Shown one piece after another: positions 18,700 to 27,903 of a DNA stretch of 64,000 nucleotides (the first letter of the stretch is position 1; each line of letters starts with the position of its first letter). The notes under the pieces were generated by a model. It had not been told where the DNA came from, ran no database searches, and was given only the letters and a program-made list of their open reading frames with translations. The position numbers and the translations under genes were made by a program. This DNA is from Acidimicrobiales bacterium (GTDB lineage Bacteria > Actinomycetota > Acidimicrobiia > Acidimicrobiales > Aldehydirespiratoraceae). Where the stretch lies: the NCBI GenBank assembly GCA_965117015.1, contig OZ220747.1, forward strand, positions 2,708,247 through 2,772,246, given 5' to 3'.

Positions 18700-18704
18700 A
18701 GCGC

Positions 18705-18812
18705 TTGTTCCGGCCGGCGGGTTTATTGCCTCCTGGTGGGGTTTCCCGGCCGGCGGGTTCTGTGTCGTTCGGTGGGGCGTCCCGGCCGGCGGGTCCTGTC
18801 GCCGGGCTCCGT
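18705..18812. repeat. 36-nt tandem direct repeat x3 containing the core (C)CCGGCCGGCGGGT
   Basis: The core recurs at 18709-18722, 18745-18758 and 18781-18794 (period 36). The frame continuous with the downstream ORF uses rare A/T-ending codons here (tta, ttg, cct, tct), which argues that the repeats are non-coding. Confidence 0.8.
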
Positions 18813-18833
18813 CCGGTCGACGGGCTTCGCCCA

Positions 18834-20465
18834 TTGTCGACCGCCCGGACTCGTCGCCACCCCCCGGCCTGGCGGGCCGCTGCCCGGCTTGCCGCAGCCG
18901 TTGTGCTCGTCTTCTCGATGGTTGCTTCCGGGTGTGGGTCTGATGGGTCTGGTGGGGGAGAGGAGCCGACGCCCGTAGTCGAAGCGGCGCCGCTGGAGCC
19001 TGGGCCTGAGGATGGTGCGGCTGTCGGGGCTGAGGTTGAAGATGAGCGTGTTGCTGAGTCTCCGACGACGACGACGACGACCGAGCCCGTTCCTGAGGAG
19101 CCGAGCGAGGAGATGGAGGCCGCAGTAGAGCCGGAGGTTGTTCCGGAGTCTGCTGAAGAAGAGTCTGTTGAGTTTGCGACGGTTCGGTTCGTTAGTCAGA
19201 ACATCTTGCATGGGGTTGGGTGTTCGCTGGAGAGTGACTCTTGTGCGGTGGGGGAGCGGGTGGCTTTGTTCATGGGGCAGTTGGGGGCGGCGGGGTGTCC
19301 TGAGCTGGTTTCGGTGCAGGAGGCCAATGAGCGGATTGTGGGTTTGATCGAGGCTGAGGCTGGTGGCTGTGGGTATGAGGTTGTGTGGGACGGCGATCCT
19401 GGACTTGATCGGGAGGTTGTGCTGACCATCCTGGAGGTGGTCGGTGCGCAGCGGCGGGTGCTGGCCGACCGGTTCCGCTCGGCCTATCTGGTGCGGGTGG
19501 CGTCGCCGATCGGGGTGGTCGACTTCCTGACCACGCACCTGGCCTCGGGGAGCGACGACCGGGCTTGCAGTGTCGAGCTGTGCCCACCGCCGTGCGACCC
19601 GGCCGGGAGCCTGCGAGCGTGCCAGGCCCGGCAGGTGCTCGAGTTCGCCCGCGAGGCGGCCGTGCCCGGAGGCGTGACTGTCGTGGGGGGCGACCTGAAC
19701 GACGTGGCCGGCAGTCCGACGTTGGCGGTGTTCGGCGAGGCCGGGTTCGTGGACTCTCATCTGGCCGCGGGGCACGCTGAGTGTGATGCGGCCACCGGTG
19801 CTGGTTGTACAGCTGGACGCGACGACGCGACTCTGGACGACATGGCTGATCCGGCCAGCCTCCAGCGTCGCCGCATCGACTACCTGCTGTACTCGGCTCC
19901 GGGCCGGGACTGCGCGGTGGCCGGCGGCACCGGGCTGTTCAACGCCGAGCCCGCTTCCGGCGGGCTGGCCTTCCCGTCCGACCACACCGGCGTGGCTCTG
20001 GCCTTGGCCTGTGATGCGGGCGGGGTTGATCCGGCCGTGGCGGACTTGGCCCTTCCGGACGAGCCCGAGCCGGCTGCCGAGCCGGAAGGTCAGCCGGTCG
20101 ACTCGGTCGCGGCCGAAGCGATCACCACCGCGTTCGAGGTCTTCTTCGACGGGTCGATCGCCGACATCGAGGCGCGCATCGACCAGGTCGAGGATTTCGC
20201 CGGCATGCGGGAGGCCGCCCGCCTCACGTTCGAGAGCTCGGGGGACACGGGCGCCGCCGTCCGGGGCCGGGTCGACTCGATCTCGCGGACCTCGAGCACA
20301 ACCGCCGAGGTCGCCTACTCGATCCTGTTGAACGACCAGGTCATCTTCGATGGTCGGATCGGCCAGGCAGTCCTGGCCGGCGGCCGCTGGCTCGTGTCGA
20401 GGGCCACCTTCTGCGATCTCGTGGCCCTGTCACCTGCCGCGGCGGAGATCACCGTCTGCCCATAG
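18834..20465 (+). CDS. secreted lipoprotein of the endonuclease/exonuclease/phosphatase (EEP) family
   Basis: My preferred start is the TTG at 18834. It gives a signal peptide with a lipobox-like VASGC. This is followed by an acidic T/E/P linker and an EEP core (VSQNILHG..., GGDLND, FPSDHTG) plus a C-terminal extra domain of about 130 aa. The tracked ORF starts at a TTG at 18705, inside the tandem repeats. Confidence 0.7.
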   Translation: MSTARTRRHPPAWRAAARLAAAVVLVFSMVASGCGSDGSGGGEEPTPVVEAAPLEPGPEDGAAVGAEVEDERVAESPTTTTTTEPVPEEPSEEMEAAVEPEVVPESAEEESVEFATVRFVSQNILHGVGCSLESDSCAVGERVALFMGQLGAAGCPELVSVQEANERIVGLIEAEAGGCGYEVVWDGDPGLDREVVLTILEVVGAQRRVLADRFRSAYLVRVASPIGVVDFLTTHLASGSDDRACSVELCPPPCDPAGSLRACQARQVLEFAREAAVPGGVTVVGGDLNDVAGSPTLAVFGEAGFVDSHLAAGHAECDAATGAGCTAGRDDATLDDMADPASLQRRRIDYLLYSAPGRDCAVAGGTGLFNAEPASGGLAFPSDHTGVALALACDAGGVDPAVADLALPDEPEPAAEPEGQPVDSVAAEAITTAFEVFFDGSIADIEARIDQVEDFAGMREAARLTFESSGDTGAAVRGRVDSISRTSSTTAEVAYSILLNDQVIFDGRIGQAVLAGGRWLVSRATFCDLVALSPAAAEITVCP

Positions 20466-20577
20466 GCCGAGCGCACGGCCGGGTTCAGTTCACCTAGCCT
20501 GCGTGCGAACTCGATACGGCATCTTGGCGTGCCTTCGGCCGTCTGCTAGACACTGAACCGACCATGGAGGTCCAACC

Positions 20578-20982
20578 ATGACCCAAGCCCCGCTCGACCA
20601 ATCGGCTGGCTCCGTGATCGACGCGCTCGACGCGCTCATCGCGGACGACACTGCATCGCTCGCGACCGGAGAATCGGTTGGCGCGGTGATCGAGGCGCTC
20701 GACGCCCTCCTCGCTGCCGGCATCGCGGCCCGGCAACGGCGGCAGGACGGCGGCGACGGCTTCGCCAGCCGCATCCAGCATGTCACTGCTCTGCGCGATG
20801 CGCTGGATGCAGCCGACGGCGATGCCGGCGGCCGGTTCCGGGATCTCATCGACGCTTTGGATGCCCGCATCGAGCGTCTAGGAATCCTGCGCGACGGCCT
20901 GCAACGCGCCGCGGACATCCAGGTCGAGGTGGGCAAGCGCCTCTACGGCCTGCGCGGCCGGCTCGCAGACTCCGAGTCCTAG
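20578..20982 (+). CDS. hypothetical small helical-repeat protein (four [VL]I[DE]ALDA repeats)
   Basis: ATG preceded by GGAGG. 134 aa, Ala/Asp-rich, with no recognisable family. The competing antisense ORF 20490..20936 has no RBS and an Arg/Ser/Ala-rich shadow-ORF composition. Confidence 0.55.
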   Translation: MTQAPLDQSAGSVIDALDALIADDTASLATGESVGAVIEALDALLAAGIAARQRRQDGGDGFASRIQHVTALRDALDAADGDAGGRFRDLIDALDARIERLGILRDGLQRAADIQVEVGKRLYGLRGRLADSES

Positions 20983-21085
20983 CCGGACTGGCTCCTCTAA
21001 GCCCTCTGCGGGGTCCATAGCGTCATCGACGGCTCTGGACGCGCCGGGGGTATACGCCTTGCACCGTTAGAGCACTGTTAGAGCT

Positions 21086-22726
21086 ATGCGTGCGCTCGGC
21101 ACTGCGGCCCAGGTCTCAATTCAATCCGCCGCCCGGGTAGTCCTGCTGCCGCTTCTGGTGGTGGAGCTTGCCGGCGACGCGGACGCATCGTGGGTCATCG
21201 TTGCCTCGCTGGTCGTGTGCGCCGCGGTCACCGCAGCGTCGATGATGCGTGTGGGCCCGCTGCGATCAACGAACCTCTACGTCGCGGTGGCCGACCCGAT
21301 GAGTATCCCGTTCTGCGTTCTTGCCCTTGAGTTCGGCGGGGCTGTGACGCTGGTTGTGCTGGTGGTGGTCACCGGGATGTCCCAGATCGCCGCCGGGTTG
21401 TGGCTGTCGAGCCTGCGAAGGTTCATCACCCCGGGCTTCTCCATCACCCTCGTGGTGCTGGCGTGCATATCGGTTCTACCGGTCTTCGCGCGTGCAATCG
21501 ATGCGCCGGCGGGCGCTCGATGGGCGGGCGCCGTGCCGGTGTGCATGGCGCTCACGGCCGCAGTGATCTACGCCATGAACAGACTCAAGTCCCCTGTGCT
21601 GAAACCATGGGCCCCACCGGCGGGGCTCGCGGTCGGCGCCGTCGCGGCTGCCGTCTACGGAATCTACGATGTCGATCTCGTCGCCGATGCGGCGTGGATC
21701 GGCCTGCCCGCATCGGGGTGGATCCCTAGCGGCAGCATCGACCTGTTGGCGGTGGCGATGCTGGTTCCGTCGTTTGTGATCCTGTCGCTGGTGCAAGTGG
21801 CCAGGGCCAACTCGTCGTCACTGATGACGCAGCTCGTCTCCGGGCGGTTGGTGCTGGACTTCAGGGAGGTGCAGAGGGCCAATGCCCGCATCGGCGCCGG
21901 CAATGTCCTGGCCGGTATCGGCGGCACCATTCCGTTGGGCTATTCGCCGGCCGGGCCCGCCGCGCTGCTGCAGACCGGCGGAGATTCCCGACGCATCCGC
22001 GCCCCGCTCCTCGCCCTCTTCGTCGCGGTGGCGGCTTCCCCGAAACTGCAGGCGGCCTTGATCGCGGTGCCGCGGGCCCTCATCGTCGTGTACTTCGTGT
22101 CCGTCCTGGTCATTTTGGTGGCGAAGCTGGTCCCGGTCAGCCCGTTCAAGGGGCGGGGCACCCCCGCAGTGATGTGGGTGCCGATCGGCGCAGGAGTCGT
22201 CTTCGAGGTCGCCGGGGCGGCGCTGGGGGACGCGGGGGGCCTCGATGCCGTCAACGGCCTCACGGCTGGCAGCATCGTGCTGATCGCGTTGACGGCGCGG
22301 CGGGCGCTGCGCACCGAACGGCACCGTGTCGACGTGCCGCTCGCCGCCTTCAGTGCCGAGGAGATCAAGGAGTTCGTCTCGAGCCTGCCTGTCGACAGTG
22401 AGGAGCTCAAGGACAGGCTCACCGCGGCCTCCGAGGAGGCGCTCATGGTGCTGATCCAGTCCGACGTCCACTCCTATGACCCCAACCGGCAGGTTCGGCT
22501 GACCGTGACCCTGCAGGGAGCCAATATCGAAGCTGAGTTCGTGGCCGCGCCGTCAGGTGCCCAGAACCTCCAGGAACGCATCATGTTGCTGTCGGAGCCC
22601 GAGGCACGCGATTTGGAGGCGGTCGTCGAGCGTGATGCCGCGCTGCGGTTGTTGAACCATTACGCGACGTCGGTGACTCACCGCCAGTATCGCGATGTGG
22701 AGGTAATCACCGCGGTCGTGGCCTAG
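21086..22726 (+). CDS. polytopic permease-like membrane protein (NCS2/SulP-like pattern) with a cytosolic C-terminal domain of about 140 aa
   Basis: About 400 aa of hydrophobic segments. One stretch, GNVLAGIGGTIPLGYSPAGPAALLQTGG, resembles the NCS2 signature region. A soluble C-terminal domain of unknown family follows. The family assignment is tentative. Confidence 0.55.
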   Translation: MRALGTAAQVSIQSAARVVLLPLLVVELAGDADASWVIVASLVVCAAVTAASMMRVGPLRSTNLYVAVADPMSIPFCVLALEFGGAVTLVVLVVVTGMSQIAAGLWLSSLRRFITPGFSITLVVLACISVLPVFARAIDAPAGARWAGAVPVCMALTAAVIYAMNRLKSPVLKPWAPPAGLAVGAVAAAVYGIYDVDLVADAAWIGLPASGWIPSGSIDLLAVAMLVPSFVILSLVQVARANSSSLMTQLVSGRLVLDFREVQRANARIGAGNVLAGIGGTIPLGYSPAGPAALLQTGGDSRRIRAPLLALFVAVAASPKLQAALIAVPRALIVVYFVSVLVILVAKLVPVSPFKGRGTPAVMWVPIGAGVVFEVAGAALGDAGGLDAVNGLTAGSIVLIALTARRALRTERHRVDVPLAAFSAEEIKEFVSSLPVDSEELKDRLTAASEEALMVLIQSDVHSYDPNRQVRLTVTLQGANIEAEFVAAPSGAQNLQERIMLLSEPEARDLEAVVERDAALRLLNHYATSVTHRQYRDVEVITAVVA

Positions 22727-22751
22727 AGCGGGCGCACGCAGGGGGTGTTGA

Positions 22752-23648
22752 TCAGGCCAGCGAGGCGAAGACGATCACGTTGTCCTCATAGGTCCTCACG
22801 CCGAAATCGAAGTCGCCGCCGCAGGTGACCAGCCGGAGCGTCGGCTGGTCGGTCGGCCCGTAGACCGCGTCGGTGGGGAACTCGTCCTTGTCGTGACGCT
22901 CGGTGGCCTCGACCACGTAGGTGATGGTCGATCCGTCCACCCGGTCGATGTGGATCTGGTCACCGGGGTCCAGGTACTGCAGGTAGAAGAACACGGCCGG
23001 CCCCTCCTCCTGGGAATCCACATGACCGAGGATCACGGCCGGTCCGGTCTCGCCCGGTTCGGGGCCGCCCAGCCACCAGCCCGCCTGGTCCGGATCCTCC
23101 GGCACCTCGATCGAACCGTCTTCCTGGAGGCCGAGGGGGATGATGGACGCTTCCACTTCGAGCCTCGGGATGCGGATGACGGCGGGGTTGGGCGCCTGCA
23201 TCCGGGCGTCGGTGACCGCGTCGAGGCTCAAGTGGTCCGCCATCGGCGAGTAGTCCCACGACGCCGCGGCTATACCGGCACCGGCGGCCGTTGTGACCGG
23301 GGCCAGATCGGGCTCAGCAACCGAGGCCGACGGCTCCACCGCGATGAGCGTCGTTGCCGCGGTGGTAGTCGGCGCTCCCGGGTCGGTCGTCGACATCTCC
23401 GTCGCAGCTGCCGGTGCTTCCGTCGCGATCGCGAGCGCTTCTGTCGCGGCCGTCGGTGACGATTCTTCCGCGGCCGTAGCCGGGGGGTCGGCGGCCGCGG
23501 TTTCGCTCGAGGTTGCCGGCGCTGAACTAGCGGGCGCCGGAACGATCACGCGCCCGGGGTCGGAGCTGCAGGACGCGACTGCGGCAGCGGCGATGAGAGC
23601 CGCTGCCGCAGTCCGGAGTCTTGCCGCCGAGGGCTTGGTGTTCGCCAT
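22752..23648 (-). CDS. class F sortase
   Basis: C-terminal domain shows the class F pattern: IRIPRLEVEASIIPLG, AGWW..GPEPGETGPAVILGHVD, GPAVFFYL, catalytic TLRLVTCGG and DNVIVFA. N-terminal signal/anchor ending in VASCSS, then an Ala/Thr/Pro-rich linker. Confidence 0.9.
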   Translation of the reverse strand: MANTKPSAARLRTAAAALIAAAAVASCSSDPGRVIVPAPASSAPATSSETAAADPPATAAEESSPTAATEALAIATEAPAAATEMSTTDPGAPTTTAATTLIAVEPSASVAEPDLAPVTTAAGAGIAAASWDYSPMADHLSLDAVTDARMQAPNPAVIRIPRLEVEASIIPLGLQEDGSIEVPEDPDQAGWWLGGPEPGETGPAVILGHVDSQEEGPAVFFYLQYLDPGDQIHIDRVDGSTITYVVEATERHDKDEFPTDAVYGPTDQPTLRLVTCGGDFDFGVRTYEDNVIVFASLA

Positions 23649-23679
23649 GAACTCCCGCCCTTAGCGGGTTGGTTGTCTG

Positions 23680-24279
23680 TTAGGCGTGGCGCCTGGTGAC
23701 GAGCGCAGCCCCGCCGAGCAGGACTACCGCCGCCAGGGTGGCGGCCAGCGGGACGGCCACGCTGTTGCCGTCGGATCCGGCCGTGCCGCCGAAGCCGGTC
23801 TCAGCTGCACCCTCCGGAGCCATGTCGTCGCCCATGTCGTCGCCCATGTCCTCCGCGATGAAGAGGATTGGAGCAGCGCTGTCCTCAGTGCTCGCGGCAT
23901 CTCCGGCGCCGAACGCGAAGTTGGCCGGTACGTCGTGGGTGATCTCGGCCGTGAAGGTGCCATCACCGCCCACAGGGATGGGCGCGCCCAGGGGTGCGAG
24001 GATGCAGTCTTCCTGACCCATGCCCTCCAAAGCGGCCACGATCATGTCGGTTGGCGTCGCGGTCGTGAACTGCTCGCCGGGGACGGTGCAGGGCACGATG
24101 AAGACGATCAGGCCGGGACTCCAGCCCGATCCGGTGAGCGTGAAGGTGTAGGTCCCCGGTCCTTCCACGGCCGGCGGGTCTGCTGTGAGCAACGGTCCGT
24201 CCTGAGCCGAGGCCTGGCTGGTCAGCACCAACAGGGCCAGCACGCTCACGATGGCCGTCAGCGCCATGATTCTCTTCAT
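23680..24279 (-). CDS. sortase-substrate-like cell-surface protein, paralogue 1
   Basis: Signal peptide MKRIMALTAIVSVLALLVLTSQASA, a two-Cys domain of about 100 aa, and a DMGDDMGDDM tract. The C-terminal sorting signal is PEGAAETG, then a spacer, a hydrophobic helix and TRRHA. Confidence 0.8.
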   Translation of the reverse strand: MKRIMALTAIVSVLALLVLTSQASAQDGPLLTADPPAVEGPGTYTFTLTGSGWSPGLIVFIVPCTVPGEQFTTATPTDMIVAALEGMGQEDCILAPLGAPIPVGGDGTFTAEITHDVPANFAFGAGDAASTEDSAAPILFIAEDMGDDMGDDMAPEGAAETGFGGTAGSDGNSVAVPLAATLAAVVLLGGAALVTRRHA

Positions 24280-24373
24280 CAGTTCTGTCCTTTCGTGGAG
24301 CTAGCAGCTCTACCTGTACCTATACAGCCCCCGCTGCACGCGCTGTAGGCACGCGCAACCGCAACTGCGGGCG

Positions 24374-24379
24374 ATTATA
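24374..24379 (-). promoter_or_regulatory. -10 hexamer TATAAT about 95 nt upstream of surface-protein paralogue 1
   Basis: Plus strand reads ATTATA at 24374-24379. The homologous positions upstream of paralogues 2 and 3 read TATACT (25181-25186) and TATCCT (26292-26297). Confidence 0.4.
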
Positions 24380-24410
24380 CACACGCGTGTCCTGCCGGGT
24401 GAGGTAACGC

Positions 24411-24488
24411 GACTGCGGCAGCGACCATGAAAGCCGCTGCCGCAGTCCGCAGTCTTGCCGCCCGGGCTCGGTGTCCGTTACAGACTCC
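24411..24488 (-). pseudogene. remnant of the sortase gene 5' end (start codon lost) downstream of surface-protein paralogue 2
   Basis: Aligns by eye with 23577-23654, the sortase start and signal-peptide coding region. The CAT start complement is replaced (gttacagact versus gccatgaact). The hairpin CTGCGGCAGCG/CGCTGCCGCAG is retained at 24413-24445. Confidence 0.7.
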
Positions 24489-24512
24489 AGCGCCCGGCGG
24501 GTTGGTTTGTCG

Positions 24513-25082
24513 TTAGCTGTGGCGTCGAGCGACCAGGGCTGTTCCGCCGAGCAGGGCCACGGCCGCGAGGGTGGCAGCCAGCGGGACGGCCACGCTGTTG
24601 CCGTCGGATCCGGCGGTGCCGCCGAAGCCGGTCTCGGCGGCACCTTCGGGCGCCATGTCGTCGCCCATGTCGTCCATCGGCTCGCCGATCTTCACGAGGG
24701 CGAGGGCAGCGGCCGAGGGTTCCGCGGTGAACACCAGTATCACGAGCCCTTCGGCCGGAACGCTGACGGTCCTCGATGTCGAGAATGACCCTCCTGGAGC
24801 TGAGACGGCTGCACCCATGTCACTAATGAGGTCGGGGCAGCTCGCGAGCGTCGTCGCTTGATCCAGGGCGGCAGGTATGACGCCTCCGAAGCCAGGGCAT
24901 GCTGTGATTGAGGGGTCGGCTTGCCAGCCGCTGCCGGAGATCGTCACCGTGTGGTCGCCCGCCGCGCTGACGTACTCCGGATCTACCGAAGCGGACGGCT
25001 CGCCCTGTGCAGATGCCTGGCTTGCCAGCACAAACAGGGCCAACACACTCACCACAGCCGTTAGCGCCATGATTCTCTTCAT
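24513..25082 (-). CDS. sortase-substrate-like cell-surface protein, paralogue 2
   Basis: Nearly identical signal peptide and C-terminal block (DDMGDDMAPEGAAETGFGGTAGSDGNSVAVPLAATLAAV...RRHS). The central domain has diverged. Confidence 0.8.
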   Translation of the reverse strand: MKRIMALTAVVSVLALFVLASQASAQGEPSASVDPEYVSAAGDHTVTISGSGWQADPSITACPGFGGVIPAALDQATTLASCPDLISDMGAAVSAPGGSFSTSRTVSVPAEGLVILVFTAEPSAAALALVKIGEPMDDMGDDMAPEGAAETGFGGTAGSDGNSVAVPLAATLAAVALLGGTALVARRHS

Positions 25083-25226
25083 CTGATCTGTTCCTTTCGA
25101 GGGTTGAAGCAGCCTTGTTAGTGCCGCTTGCGAGCCCGCGCCGCATGCGCAATCGGCGCACGCAACCGCAAGTCCGGGGGAGTATACCCATGCTCGGTCA
25201 GCGGGTGATTGAGTGTTCCTTGACGC

Positions 25227-25304
25227 GGCTGCGGCAGCGACACGAATGCCGCTGCCGCAGTCGTCAGTTGGTTGCTCGGGGATGGGCGCTCGTTATGAAC
25301 TCCC
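25227..25304 (-). pseudogene. second remnant of the sortase gene 5' end (ATG mutated to ATA) downstream of surface-protein paralogue 3
   Basis: cgttatgaactccc aligns with cgccatgaactccc at the sortase start. The hairpin CTGCGGCAGCG/CGCTGCCGCAG is retained at 25229-25260 with a different loop. Confidence 0.65.
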
Positions 25305-25325
25305 TACCAGAGAGCGGTTGATCTG

Positions 25326-26234
25326 TCAGGCGTTACGCCGGGTGATGATCACAGCCCCGCCCAGTAGGACTACCGCCGCCAGCGTTGCGGCTAGCGGGAC
25401 GGCGATGCTGTTGCCGTCGGAGCCGGCGCTGCCGCCGAAGCCCGTGGCTGCGGGGCCCTCGGGAACCATGTCGTCGCCCATGTCGTCGGCCATGTCGTCG
25501 GCCATGTCGTCGCCCATGTCATCAGCCATGTCATCAGCCATGTCATCAGCCATGTCGTCGCCCATGTCGTCGCCCATGTCGTCGTCGGCCATGTCGTCGT
25601 CGGCCATGTCATCAGCCATGTCGTCGTCGGCCATGTCCTCTTCCTCGGCAGGGGCCTCCTCTTCAGCCGGGGCTTCCTCCTCGGCAGGGGCCTCCTCTTC
25701 AGCCGGGGCTTCCTCCTCGGCAGGGGCCTCCTCTTCAGCCGGGGCTTCCTCCTCGGCCGGGGCCTCCTCTTCCGCGGGCTCTTCCTCGGCTGGGGCCTCC
25801 TCTTCCGCGGGCTCTTCCTCTTCGACCATCGGCTCTCCGACCTTGATGACGACAGTGGCGCCGGCCGGCGGGCTTGAAGTGAACACGAGGAGCACGAGGC
25901 CTTCAGCTGGAACGTCCACGGTCACGGATTGCGTGAAGGACCCGCCGCTAATCGTTGCAGTCACGGGAGGAGCGAACACGTCCGGTGCACAGTTCGCGAT
26001 GACAGCTCCCTGATCGGGGTCTTCAGGCGCTACGCCGCGCCAGCCAGGGCACTTCGCGATTCCGGGGTTCGCCCCCCAGCCTGAGCCTGACACGGTGACC
26101 GTATGACTGCCGGCCGAGCTGACGTACTCCGGGTCGACTGTTGCCGTCGGCTCGCCCTGGGCGCCTGCCTGGGTCGTCAGCGCGAATAGGGCCAACAGAC
26201 TCACTGCGGCTGTCAGTGCCATGATCTTCTTCAT
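25326..26234 (-). CDS. sortase-substrate-like cell-surface protein, paralogue 3, with expanded acidic repeats
   Basis: Start taken at MKKIMALTAAV (26234), preceded by AAAGGA. Same domain and C-terminal signal (PEGPAATGFGGSAGSDGNS...TRRNA), plus long (EEAPAEE)n and (DDM[AG])n tracts. Confidence 0.8.
   Translation of the reverse strand: MKKIMALTAAVSLLALFALTTQAGAQGEPTATVDPEYVSSAGSHTVTVSGSGWGANPGIAKCPGWRGVAPEDPDQGAVIANCAPDVFAPPVTATISGGSFTQSVTVDVPAEGLVLLVFTSSPPAGATVVIKVGEPMVEEEEPAEEEAPAEEEPAEEEAPAEEEAPAEEEAPAEEEAPAEEEAPAEEEAPAEEEAPAEEEDMADDDMADDMADDDMADDDMGDDMGDDMADDMADDMADDMGDDMADDMADDMGDDMVPEGPAATGFGGSAGSDGNSIAVPLAATLAAVVLLGGAVIITRRNA
25467..25634 (-). repeat. 12/15-nt coding microsatellite-like repeat (CATGTCRTCRSC)n encoding (DDM[AG])n
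   Basis: Reading the plus strand directly shows about 13 consecutive catgtc-initiated units. Confidence 0.9.
25635..25826 (-). repeat. 36-nt (three perfect copies) plus 33-nt (x2) coding tandem repeats encoding (EEAPAEE)n
   Basis: The unit cctcggcaggggcctcctcttcagccggggcttcct is repeated exactly from about 25643. Variant units follow. Confidence 0.9.
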
Positions 26235-26347
26235 CTGGTCTGTCCTTTCATGGAGCCAGCAGTGTTGTGCTAGCACGCGTCACTCGCGGGGAGGATACAC
26301 ATCGGATTGGGGCCGGGTCCACCAGAACGACCGGGGCCGGGACGCGA

Positions 26348-26907
26348 CGGAGCCCCGAGTAGCCTCCCGGCTTGCGCCGCTTAACTTCTCGGGGCTCCGA
26401 TTGCGCCTATCCACCGACCGCCCAATCCCGTCGGATTCTGCGGTACTCCGGGACACTTCCCCGTATCCGGTTCAGTGCCCTGACCCCCGCCTCGGACGAC
26501 TCCGTGGCGTTGGCCTGAATCACCCGGCGGTACCCGTCGGCACCTCCGAAGACTCCGGTTCTCCCCGTTCCCCGTCGGGATCGGACTCGACCCGGTGCCT
26601 CGGCGACACCCTCACCTTGAGGCGGATTCCGGTGACTCCCTCGCTCACCCGGCGGTGTGCTCGGTTGTCGCCGGGCCTCCCGGCGAGGTGACCCTCCTCC
26701 GACCTTGCTGTCACCCTCCCCCGTCGGGGATTCCTACCGCTAGCTCGGAGGAGAACCTCCGTGTCCCCGGCTGACCCACCGGCTCCTGCGAACCGGTCTG
26801 GCTGGCTGGGTGTCCTCTGCGGACCGCTCCATCGACTCCGCTCCGCTGCTTCGGGCCGAGGCCCTTGGCTGCTGATCCGGTGTCTCCGTCGCTGCTCACT
26901 TCGGACG
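26348..26907 (-). ncRNA. candidate structured non-coding RNA or long leader (family unknown)
   Basis: No protein-like frame and no codon-position GC bias in this region. A promoter lies at 26914-26942. Four hairpins share a C(GACG)G loop on the minus strand: 26424-26437, 26529-26544, 26569-26580 and 26717-26730. There is also a CGGAGG-UUCU-CCUCCG hairpin (26746-26761). A terminal 12-bp stem (26348-26359 / 26388-26399) has a loop that can form GNRA-capped (GCAA or GGGA) mini-helices only on the minus strand. The ends are estimates. Confidence 0.45.
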
Positions 26908-26913
26908 CTGGGC

Positions 26914-26942
26914 ATCTTGGGGGGTCCGCTCCGGGTTGTCAA
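26914..26942 (-). promoter_or_regulatory. putative sigma-70-type promoter TTGACA-N17-CAAGAT
   Basis: Minus-strand TTGACA at 26942-26937, a 17-nt spacer, then CAAGAT at 26919-26914. It sits at the edge of a locally AT-richer patch. Confidence 0.45.
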
Positions 26943-26952
26943 CCCTAAAACG

Positions 26953-26994
26953 CGAAATCCCCATCGAAATCCCGAGCATTTTCGAGAAATCCCC
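26953..26994 (-). promoter_or_regulatory. three direct repeats of GGGATTTC (plus strand GAAATCCC) just upstream of the -35; candidate transcription-factor boxes
   Basis: GAAATCCC starts at 26954, 26966 and 26986 (spacing 12 and 20 nt), immediately upstream of the TTGACA in the direction of transcription. Confidence 0.5.
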
Positions 26995-27062
26995 AAGCGG
27001 CGCCCAGTTATGCACAGAGCGGTCACAGTCTGGTGTCGATTCGGGGGCTCCGAACGGCCCGA

Positions 27063-27824
27063 TCAGGCCTCCCAGTGGCCCCGCTCGACCATCACCCGGC
27101 GCAATACCGAGGGCCGGTCGGTCATGATGCCGTCCACCCCCATGTCGAGGAGGCGGTTCATCTCAGCCGGCTCGTCGATGGTCCAGACATGGACCGCGAC
27201 GCCGTGGCGATGGGCCGCGGCCAGCATCGCGGGCCGCACCAGCGTCAGGCCCTTGGCCCGCACCGGCACCTGGGCGGCGTGGAAGTCGAAGGACGCCGGC
27301 ACCCCTAGCCGGGCCGAGGCGGCCAGCAGGCGGGTGATGCCGCGGGGTCCGGCGCCGACGCACAGTGTTGCCCCGATCCGGTCGCGCACCTGCCGGGTGC
27401 GCCGGTCCGAGAAGGAGCACACGCACACCCGCTCGACTGCGCCGGTTCGCCGGAGCACCTCCACCAGGGGCCCGACCGCGGCGTCGCTCTTGGGATCGAT
27501 GTTGATCCTGGTGTCCGGCAGCTCCTCCAGGAGTTCGTCGAGCAGCATGATCGGGTCGGTGCCGGCCACCCGGGCTTCCCGGACCCGGCTCCAGGGGAGG
27601 TCGCCCACGACGCCGCTGCCGTCGGTGACCCGGTCCAGGGAGTCGTCGTGGAAGGCCACCGCGACGCCGTCGGCGGTGGCGTGGACGTCGGTCTCCACAT
27701 GGGTGTAGCCCAGGTCCACGGCATGGCGGAAGGCCCGCAGCGTGTTCTCGGGGAACTCTTCGGCCCCGCCCCGGTGAGCGAAGGCGATGGGCCCGTCCAC
27801 GTCCAGGTACGGGTGGCGCGCCAT
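27063..27824 (-). CDS. glycerophosphodiester phosphodiesterase family protein
   Basis: FAHRGG, EFPENTLRAF and VETDVHATADG motifs. Start taken at MARHPYLD (27824); the tracked ORF extends to 27863. Confidence 0.85.
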   Translation of the reverse strand: MARHPYLDVDGPIAFAHRGGAEEFPENTLRAFRHAVDLGYTHVETDVHATADGVAVAFHDDSLDRVTDGSGVVGDLPWSRVREARVAGTDPIMLLDELLEELPDTRINIDPKSDAAVGPLVEVLRRTGAVERVCVCSFSDRRTRQVRDRIGATLCVGAGPRGITRLLAASARLGVPASFDFHAAQVPVRAKGLTLVRPAMLAAAHRHGVAVHVWTIDEPAEMNRLLDMGVDGIMTDRPSVLRRVMVERGHWEA

Positions 27825-27903
27825 GGCTGCACCGTAGTGGGTGCAATAGGTGCAGGTGGCCACTTATCCACAGGTGTCCACCGCCGGCGATAGCGTTGTG
27901 GAC

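Follow-up and report, generated by a model that had tools for sequence, protein, structure and literature searches.

A class F sortase gene and three GVDTG-type substrate genes as a likely dedicated sorting cassette in an Acidimicrobiales genome

Introduction

We analyzed a locus in the genome of an Acidimicrobiales bacterium, in which a gene for a class F sortase lies directly behind three tandem paralogous genes for its candidate substrates, here called S1, S2, and S3. The locus is part of a stretch of 64,000 nucleotides (nt) of GenBank assembly GCA_965117015.1 (contig OZ220747.1, positions 2,708,247 to 2,772,246), which is referred to as the window. The closest described counterparts are pairs of Actinomycetota proteins that are modeled in NCBIfam as NF058571, a sorting domain, and NF033748, a class F sortase. 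These pairs have the same tail layout and register as the proteins of the locus (P-x-G-G-V-D-T-G-x-G-G in the pairs, P-E-G-A-A-E-T-G-F-G-G here) and the same gene order, with each cargo directly upstream of the class F sortase that belongs to it. The window differs from them in having AAETG or PAATG in place of GVDTG and three tandem paralogous cargos rather than one. It also adds a genus-specific linker of DDM repeats and a highly conserved spacer, FGG[TS]AGSDGNS, and its protein scores are borderline.

Several known sortase systems share part of this arrangement. The SrtA/LPXTG system of Staphylococcus aureus has the same three-part signal, the T-G dipeptide, and the His/Cys transpeptidase fold. 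In contrast to that system, the signal at this locus lacks Leu-Pro, has a conserved Pro six residues before the Thr, and carries an obligatory G-x-G-G after the motif, while the enzyme serves dedicated neighbors rather than housekeeping functions and does not conserve the triad Arg. SrtF of Propionibacterium (Cutibacterium) acnes is likewise a class F enzyme and the sole sortase of its genome, but its reported LPXTG substrates are dispersed, whereas the candidate substrates described here are adjacent and none carries LPXTG. Streptomyces SrtE1 and SrtE2 (class E, recognizing LAXTG, for example in chaplins) are also actinobacterial and also use a non-LPXTG signal ending in TG. However, class E enzymes have many dispersed substrates with Leu at P5 and Ala at P4, and this genome contains no class E sortase. 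Class C pilus operons similarly place a dedicated sortase beside two or three paralogous substrates, but the locus has neither a Lys-bearing pilin motif nor a pilin-type domain, and its sortase belongs to a different class.

The role of class F sortases is still described as unclear in reviews, and deletion of all four class F genes of Actinoplanes missouriensis gave no phenotype. In our literature search, the term GVDTG was not used in a sorting sense, and the literature on class F sortases and SrtF gave no description of this signal. The host genome of the window consists of a single contig of 3.64 Mb, and its closest named relatives are sponge-associated Acidimicrobiia, ‘Candidatus Aldehydirespirator’. 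A sponge-symbiotic lineage has been described within the family Aldehydirespiratoraceae, a name proposed for the placeholder UBA11606 (PMC11706023).

Results

Four open reading frames (ORFs) were found on the minus strand in the order S3, S2, S1, and class F sortase (window 22752-26234), in agreement with the initial annotation, which had placed three minus-strand genes directly upstream of such an enzyme. The class assignment made there also held. The sortase scored 185.3 bits against the class F profile hidden Markov model (HMM) NF033748, above its cut-off of 166, with residues 148-297 covering model positions 4-154 of 155, and 84.9 bits against the Pfam Sortase family PF04203. In full-length alignments to S1, the two paralogues showed 53% and 48% identity. 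The longest frame of S3 spans 25326-26276 and opens at a GTG at 26276; we placed its start at the ATG at 26234, because the GAAAGGA ribosome-binding site and the MK[KR]IMALTA start found there match those of S1 and S2.

The three candidate substrates end in a shared tail, which comprises their last 45 residues and reads P-E-G-[AP]-A-[EA]-T-G-F-G-G-[TS]-A-G-S-D-G-N-S-[VI]-A-V-P-L-A-A-T-L-A-A-V-x-L-L-G-G-x5-R-R-[HN]-[AS]. Its elements follow one another as DDM, motif, conserved spacer of 12-15 residues, membrane helix, and RR, and nearly every position is invariant among S1, S2, and S3. The sequence spanning the motif is DDMAPEGAAETGFGGTAGS, and the motif-containing tail peptide is DDMAPEGAAETGFGGTAGSDG. 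The NCBIfam model NF058571 (‘GVDTG sorting domain’; cut-off 29 bits) scored S1, S2, and S3 at 29.8, 28.9, and 27.5 bits in the protein scan and at 33.3, 32.3, and 32.1 bits in a six-frame search of the genome, where all three exceeded the cut-off. The genome-level match of S3 (G000:2733578-2733712) corresponds to window positions 25332-25466.

AAETG and PAATG stand at the GVDTG position of the model, because the tails of relatives read P-V-G-G-V-D-T-G-A-G-G in the same place. Both the near-identity of the C-terminal blocks and their sorting-signal layout, as described in the initial annotation, were recovered by alignment and by a curated model. Models of the LPXTG anchor (PF00746/TIGR01167) gave no match to the tails at E <= 1 in Pfam or NCBIfam, and the tails contain no Leu-Pro.

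The motif had been proposed as a short one. A short motif is indeed present, but the conserved signal proved to be longer than a pentapeptide, namely P-x-G-[GAP]-[AV]-x-[T/A/S]-G-x-G-G, and the Thr-Gly and the subsequent G-G were nearly invariant among 76 homologues. Across all loci surveyed, the consensus was [hydrophobic]-P-x-G-[GAP]-[AVI]-x-[T>A,S]-G-x-G-G-[TM]-[AS], followed by 8-15 residues, a helix, and RR(R). The cargos that carry this tail range from 96 to 1745 amino acids (aa) and are mutually unrelated. The tail therefore acts like an address that can be moved from protein to protein, and such portability is the hallmark of a sorting signal.

A second flavor of the tail, P-x-G-V-P-T-G-[DNT]-[AG]-G-L (GVPTG), was observed upstream of class F-like sortases scoring about 140-155 bits. 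These enzymes come from other Acidimicrobiia families and carry the active-site string LTLITCGG, which suggests that the signal variant (GVDTG versus GVPTG) changes together with the subgroup of the enzyme.

To delimit the set within the genome, all of its 3.64 Mb was searched for sortases and for tails. The PF04203 search returned a single sortase-domain gene, the one at this locus, and exactly three GVDTG-type tails were detected, all of them here. A permissive search through every stop-to-stop frame, for x-x-x-[TSA]-G with a hydrophobic stretch and a basic end after it, yielded 39 tails, among which only those of S1, S2, and S3 were credible; no credible LPXTG or LAXTG protein was found in this genome-wide scan. 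An LPGTG match at genome positions 3342103-3342783 was rejected, as its frame is rich in Arg, Pro, and His, has no signal peptide, and looks non-coding. Among the exosortases and archaeosortases searched for in the genome, no homologue and hence no rival sorting enzyme was found; this search did not include rhombosortase.

The pairing of sortase and tail was followed through three samples of increasing breadth. Within the genus (37 genomes), a class F sortase and a tail occurred together in 23 genomes, and both were absent from the other 14. In each of the 22 genomes with an intact sortase gene, the tail adjoins the sortase; in the remaining one (G004), whose assembly is fragmented, a sortase fragment and a tail lie on separate contigs. 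One genome (G023) has a degenerate tail (LIESG, E = 0.004) that still adjoins its sortase, and weak matches to the helix alone were seen in three of the 14 cassette-less genomes. Fisher's exact test for this co-occurrence gave p = 1.6e-10, or 4e-7 when the three weak matches are counted, in both cases ignoring shared ancestry. The copy number varied from 1 to 3 cargos per cassette and from 1 to 4 tail matches per genome.

In the class sample (301 Acidimicrobiia genomes), nearly every good tail match had a sortase domain on the same strand 300-700 nt away. One genome (G294) carries four separate tails, each followed by its own sortase, in cargo frames of 183-1745 aa; two of these four cassettes are near-identical duplicates. 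Starting from the enzyme instead, a tail-bearing gene adjoined the sortase at 27 of the best 30 class F loci of this sample, upstream of it at 26 loci (one of them truncated where the contig ends) and downstream at one. The other three comprise a motif with a disrupted tail, a sortase at a contig edge, and a fusion protein.

In the phylum sample (401 genomes), tails over the cut-off were detected in 31 genomes, eleven of which are 7.5-9.9 Mb in size. Among the best 14 tail loci of this sample, a class F-like sortase was recognizable in the fetched stretch at 11, and in all 11 it stood directly after the tail; genomes of 7.5-9.9 Mb are among those with such a pair. The distant cassettes mostly hold a single cargo. 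The dedicated pairing of enzyme and substrates that had been put forward for this locus is consistent with these surveys, given the perfect co-occurrence in the genus and the adjacency at almost every class and phylum locus examined.

We further analyzed the enzyme's active site using an alignment of 23 class F sortases that adjoin GVDTG tails. His209 (ILGHVDS), Cys276 (RLVTCGG), and Asp281 were invariant, and Asn290 was present in 22 of the 23 sequences. A conserved Arg past the catalytic Cys, expected about 8-13 residues after it, had no corresponding column among the 23; Arg285 (+9) occurs in 10 of them. After the Cys, Asp (+5), Tyr (+11), and Asn (+14) are invariant or nearly so, and before it, at -4, stands a conserved Arg (LRLxTC). 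The canonical triad Arg seems to be absent from the sortase, and since no Arg is conserved after the Cys, the chemistry may differ from that of classes A-E. A phmmer search of the sortase against solved structures gave no match even at E = 10. A profile of the 23 sequences, when searched against PDB, aligned with class D, C, and A sortases only as far as the Cys, so the Arg/Asn position cannot be mapped on solved structures.

The N-terminus of the sortase, AAALIAAAAVAS-C27 (residues 1-27), has the form of a lipobox signal, and the string AAVASC[SG] is kept in the sortases of the genus. Judging from this signal, the enzyme is probably a lipoprotein rather than anchored by a helix; a lipoprotein-tethered sortase would be unusual. 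A lipobox with Cys was also observed in several distant class F sortases adjoining GVDTG tails, and a plain membrane helix in others. In one further genome (G164, C2:134773-135216), a 490-aa secreted protein has a class F-like sortase domain fused to its C-terminus, rather than a sortase gene standing next to its cargo.

The candidate substrates themselves share an almost identical signal peptide, called by eye (MKRIMALTA...SQASA, followed by Q), with a predicted cut after SQASA or TQAGA at residue 25. Their mature parts contain exactly two Cys each, in agreement with the common signal peptide and two-Cys domain of the initial annotation. An AlphaFold model of S2, based on 76 homologues, had a mean predicted local distance difference test score of 76, and residues 30-132 formed a beta sandwich with block means of 86-93. 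The domain of about 100 aa thus has a predicted fold, but its Foldseek matches against PDB were weak and generic, to immunoglobulin (Ig) V-domains (E about 3e-3, template modeling score about 0.4). A profile search of PDB with the mature domain matched signal peptides only.

The Pfam scan of the 76 homologues gave matches to neocarzinostatin (PF00960) in 24 at E <= 0.05, weak even at best (5.7e-5), and to Big_6 in 14; TIG was also among the weak Ig-like matches of family members. S1, S2, and S3 themselves matched nothing in Pfam, and only weakly a chromoprotein family in NCBIfam (E-values of 0.04-0.57). More than 180 homologues were found, with no Pfam domain on record, and all those named in their source are called ‘hypothetical protein’.

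At a computed isoelectric point of about 4, the mature proteins are very acidic, containing 17-75 Asp and Glu against 0-3 Lys and Arg. DDM[AG] repeats directly precede the sorting signal and are kept across the genus; in S3, the expansion of DDM[AG] and EEAPAEE is encoded by tandem repeats in the DNA. We read these repeats as an acidic stalk of variable length that would span the cell wall. Our guess is that the Ig-like head serves in adhesion or in the binding of ligands at the cell surface. The coordinates of all features are listed in Table 1.

Table 1. Features of the sortase locus in window coordinates
Feature	Position	Strand	Details
Class F sortase	22752-23648	-	298 aa; sole sortase of the genome
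Sortase catalytic domain, residues 148-297	22758-23207	-	His209, Cys276 (LVTCGG), Asp281, Asn290; HMM match
Sortase linker rich in Ala/Thr/Ser/Pro, residues 28-145	23214-23567	-	118 residues: A34 T16 S14 P14
Sortase N-terminal signal with lipobox AAVAS-C27, predicted lipoprotein anchor	23568-23648	-	sequence MANTKPSAARLRTAAAALIAAAAVASC
Substrate S1	23680-24279	-	199 aa; signal peptide 1-25, Ig-like two-Cys domain, DDMG linker, sorting tail
S1 sorting domain, residues 155-199	23683-23817	-	PEGAAETGFGG, RRHA; HMM match residues 155-197
Relic of S1-sortase junction and sortase 5' end after S2	24406-24512	-	three-way DNA alignment; ATG to GTA
Substrate S2	24513-25082	-	189 aa; architecture as S1
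S2 sorting domain, residues 145-189	24516-24650	-	PEGAAETGFGG, RRHS; HMM match residues 145-187
Relic of S1-sortase junction and sortase 5' end after S3	25221-25325	-	three-way DNA alignment; ATG to ATA
Substrate S3	25326-26234	-	302 aa; architecture as S1 plus long acidic linker
S3 sorting domain, residues 258-302	25329-25463	-	PEGPAATGFGG, RRNA; HMM match within last 45 residues
S3 acidic linker, tandem repeats (DDM[AG])n and (EEAPAEE)n	25466-25824	-	Tandem Repeats Finder: 12-nt x 12.9, 36-nt x 5.2

Traces of the history of the locus are found between its genes. Because relics of the junction between S1 and the sortase stand behind the stop codons of S2 and S3, the duplicated unit was a cargo together with the 5' end of the sortase gene. 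The relic alignment has a mean column identity of 80% and includes the first ~80 nt of that gene. A palindromic run of Ala codons, GACTGCGGCAGCG...CGCTGCCGCAG, is kept in both relics as a strong hairpin, which may now act as a terminator. S1-like, S2-like, and S3-like genes also occur in other species, indicating that the paralogues are older than the divergence of these species.

Each paralogue has its own upstream region (24280-24330, 25083-25130, and 26235-26290), with -10-like boxes (TATAAT, TATACT, and TATCCT), and the ribosome-binding context GAAAGGA-N-AGA is identical in all three. A promoter consensus scan returned 0 sites, no minus-strand terminators were found, and an Rfam search of 22400-27200 gave no match.

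The cassette lies within a variable segment of about 7.6 kb (18703-26335). The segment also holds an EEP-family lipoprotein, an IDALDA mini-protein, and a permease. G001 and G006, the two cassette-less congeners that yielded both flanks, have about 7 kb of unrelated DNA in place of the segment, and in two further cassette-less congeners (G003 and G017) homology likewise breaks at 26333. The replacement DNA of G001 encodes an AftD-like GT-C arabinofuranosyltransferase, a GT4 glycosyltransferase, and an amine-oxidase-family flavoprotein. Because congeners without the cassette carry envelope-glycan genes there, the slot is tied to envelope polymers, and it resembles a variable cell-envelope island.

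The interval from S3 to the GDPD gene (27063-27863) includes about 650 nt (26343-26990) with no convincing ORF. In 27 other genomes of the genus, this region is kept over its full length at 82-97% identity, and in one more at 76%; 11 of these genomes lack the cassette. The degree of conservation equals that of the genes next to it, for pyruvate kinase and GDPD. No 3-nt periodicity was seen among its variable sites (116/115/125), and Rfam gave no match. The region probably encodes a large non-coding RNA unconnected with the cassette.

Discussion

Our analysis suggests that the locus is likely to be a cassette in which a class F sortase is dedicated to its GVDTG-type substrates, which would be cleaved within the motif and attached to the cell wall. 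The order of the genes, their family assignments, the conservation of the motif, the phyletic co-occurrence, and the adjacency are what the data show. For the export of the substrates, the lipidation of their enzyme, the bond that is cut, and the acceptor, we infer a course modeled on characterized sortases (PMC8225981, PMC11231552). The precursors would be exported by the Sec pathway and cut by signal peptidase after A-x-A at residue 25, after which the C-terminal helix and the RR tail would keep them in the membrane with the motif just outside. The sortase, tethered by a predicted lipid-modified Cys27 and the flexible linker of 118 residues, would then cut within the motif using His209 and Cys276. 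By analogy with LPXTG, the cut would most likely fall between Thr and Gly (T161 in S1, T151 in S2, and T264 in S3). Finally, the amine of a peptidoglycan precursor would resolve the acyl-enzyme (thioacyl) intermediate, resulting in covalent anchoring to the cell wall.

Several observations weigh against this scheme, either as a whole or in its details. S2 and S3 fall slightly below the 29-bit cut-off of NF058571 in the protein scan, our literature search found no paper on GVDTG tails or on this locus, and the sole characterized class F sortase, that of P. acnes, uses LPXTG. The canonical catalytic Arg is not conserved, and an Asn stands roughly at its place. Some relatives have Ala or Ser instead of Thr (GVAAG, AVNAG, PVDSG), which makes the scissile bond uncertain. 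The spacer FGG[TS]AGSDGNS is far more conserved than would be expected of a segment that is discarded. Together with the missing Arg, this conservation leaves room for a mechanism that differs in detail.

Such a difference could lie in the acceptor or in the bond. The tail may be processed while the acceptor is not peptidoglycan but water, a lipid, or another envelope polymer, or while the bond is not Thr-Gly; we regard this as rather unlikely. The Asn in place of the catalytic Arg would fit it, as would the extended, Gly-rich motif with its tolerance of Ala or Ser at the Thr position and the envelope-glycan genes (AftD-like GT-C, GT4) that occupy the slot in cassette-less congeners. However, our data point to no specific alternative, and to our knowledge all characterized sortases acting on signals of this layout attach their substrates to lipid II or to a pilin Lys.

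Less probable still is that the tail escapes cleavage altogether and simply holds the protein in the membrane by its C-terminus, with the sortase acting on other proteins or in some other way. A hydrophobic helix followed by RR suffices for retention in the membrane, the spacer is conserved beyond what a discarded segment would need, and cleavage within the tail is a matter of inference. On the other hand, the best conserved part across unrelated cargos is the motif before the helix, the tail and the sortase occur together in 23 genomes of the genus and are both absent from 14, almost always side by side where present, and this sortase has no further candidate substrate in the genome.

Polymerization of the three paralogues into a covalent fiber, in the manner of class C pilus sortases, is the least probable reading: three tandem paralogous substrates with one dedicated sortase do resemble a pilus operon, but mature S1 contains no Lys, S2 one, and S3 two, a scarcity that argues against Lys-based pilus polymerization, no pilin-type (CnaA/CnaB) domain was found beyond weak Ig-like matches (TIG, Big_6, neocarzinostatin), the enzyme is class F and not class C, and cassettes of the genus hold between 1 and 3 cargos, while most of the distant cassettes hold a single one.

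Returning to the dedicated cassette, a broader possibility is that class F sortases of this type form a mechanistically separate branch of the superfamily rather than an LPXTG variant. This idea is tentative, and we do not favor it at present. The pointers in its direction are the His-Cys-Asn site without the canonical Arg, the extended glycine-rich address P-x-G-x-[AV]-x-[T/A/S]-G-x-G-G with its conserved spacer, the occurrence of one enzyme per cargo locus, and possibly a different scissile bond or acceptor. If it were true, the window would serve as a clean test case set up by nature: a single sortase faces three cargos, and there is no further candidate substrate.

In terms of novelty, the AAETG/PAATG variant is real, but the kind of system is less new than the initial annotation assumed. 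The GVDTG signal-enzyme pair is already modeled in curated NCBIfam and the pairing recurs throughout the phylum, so the locus belongs to a known, experimentally unexplored kind. The features specific to it are the triplication, the borderline AAETG/PAATG motifs, the lipoprotein-type tether of the sortase, and the closed set of one enzyme and three cargos. The value of this particular locus is limited, because its signal is already in NCBIfam, the pairing is widespread, and the organism is uncultured; for the last reason, a Streptomyces locus would be the easier experimental handle.

The significance of the pairing lies in the fact that it names natural substrates and a signal for class F sortases, here in a closed system without competing LPXTG proteins. 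If confirmed, it would provide a new ligation specificity for protein engineering. It would also make wall-anchored surface proteins predictable in many uncultured Actinomycetota, including sponge symbionts.

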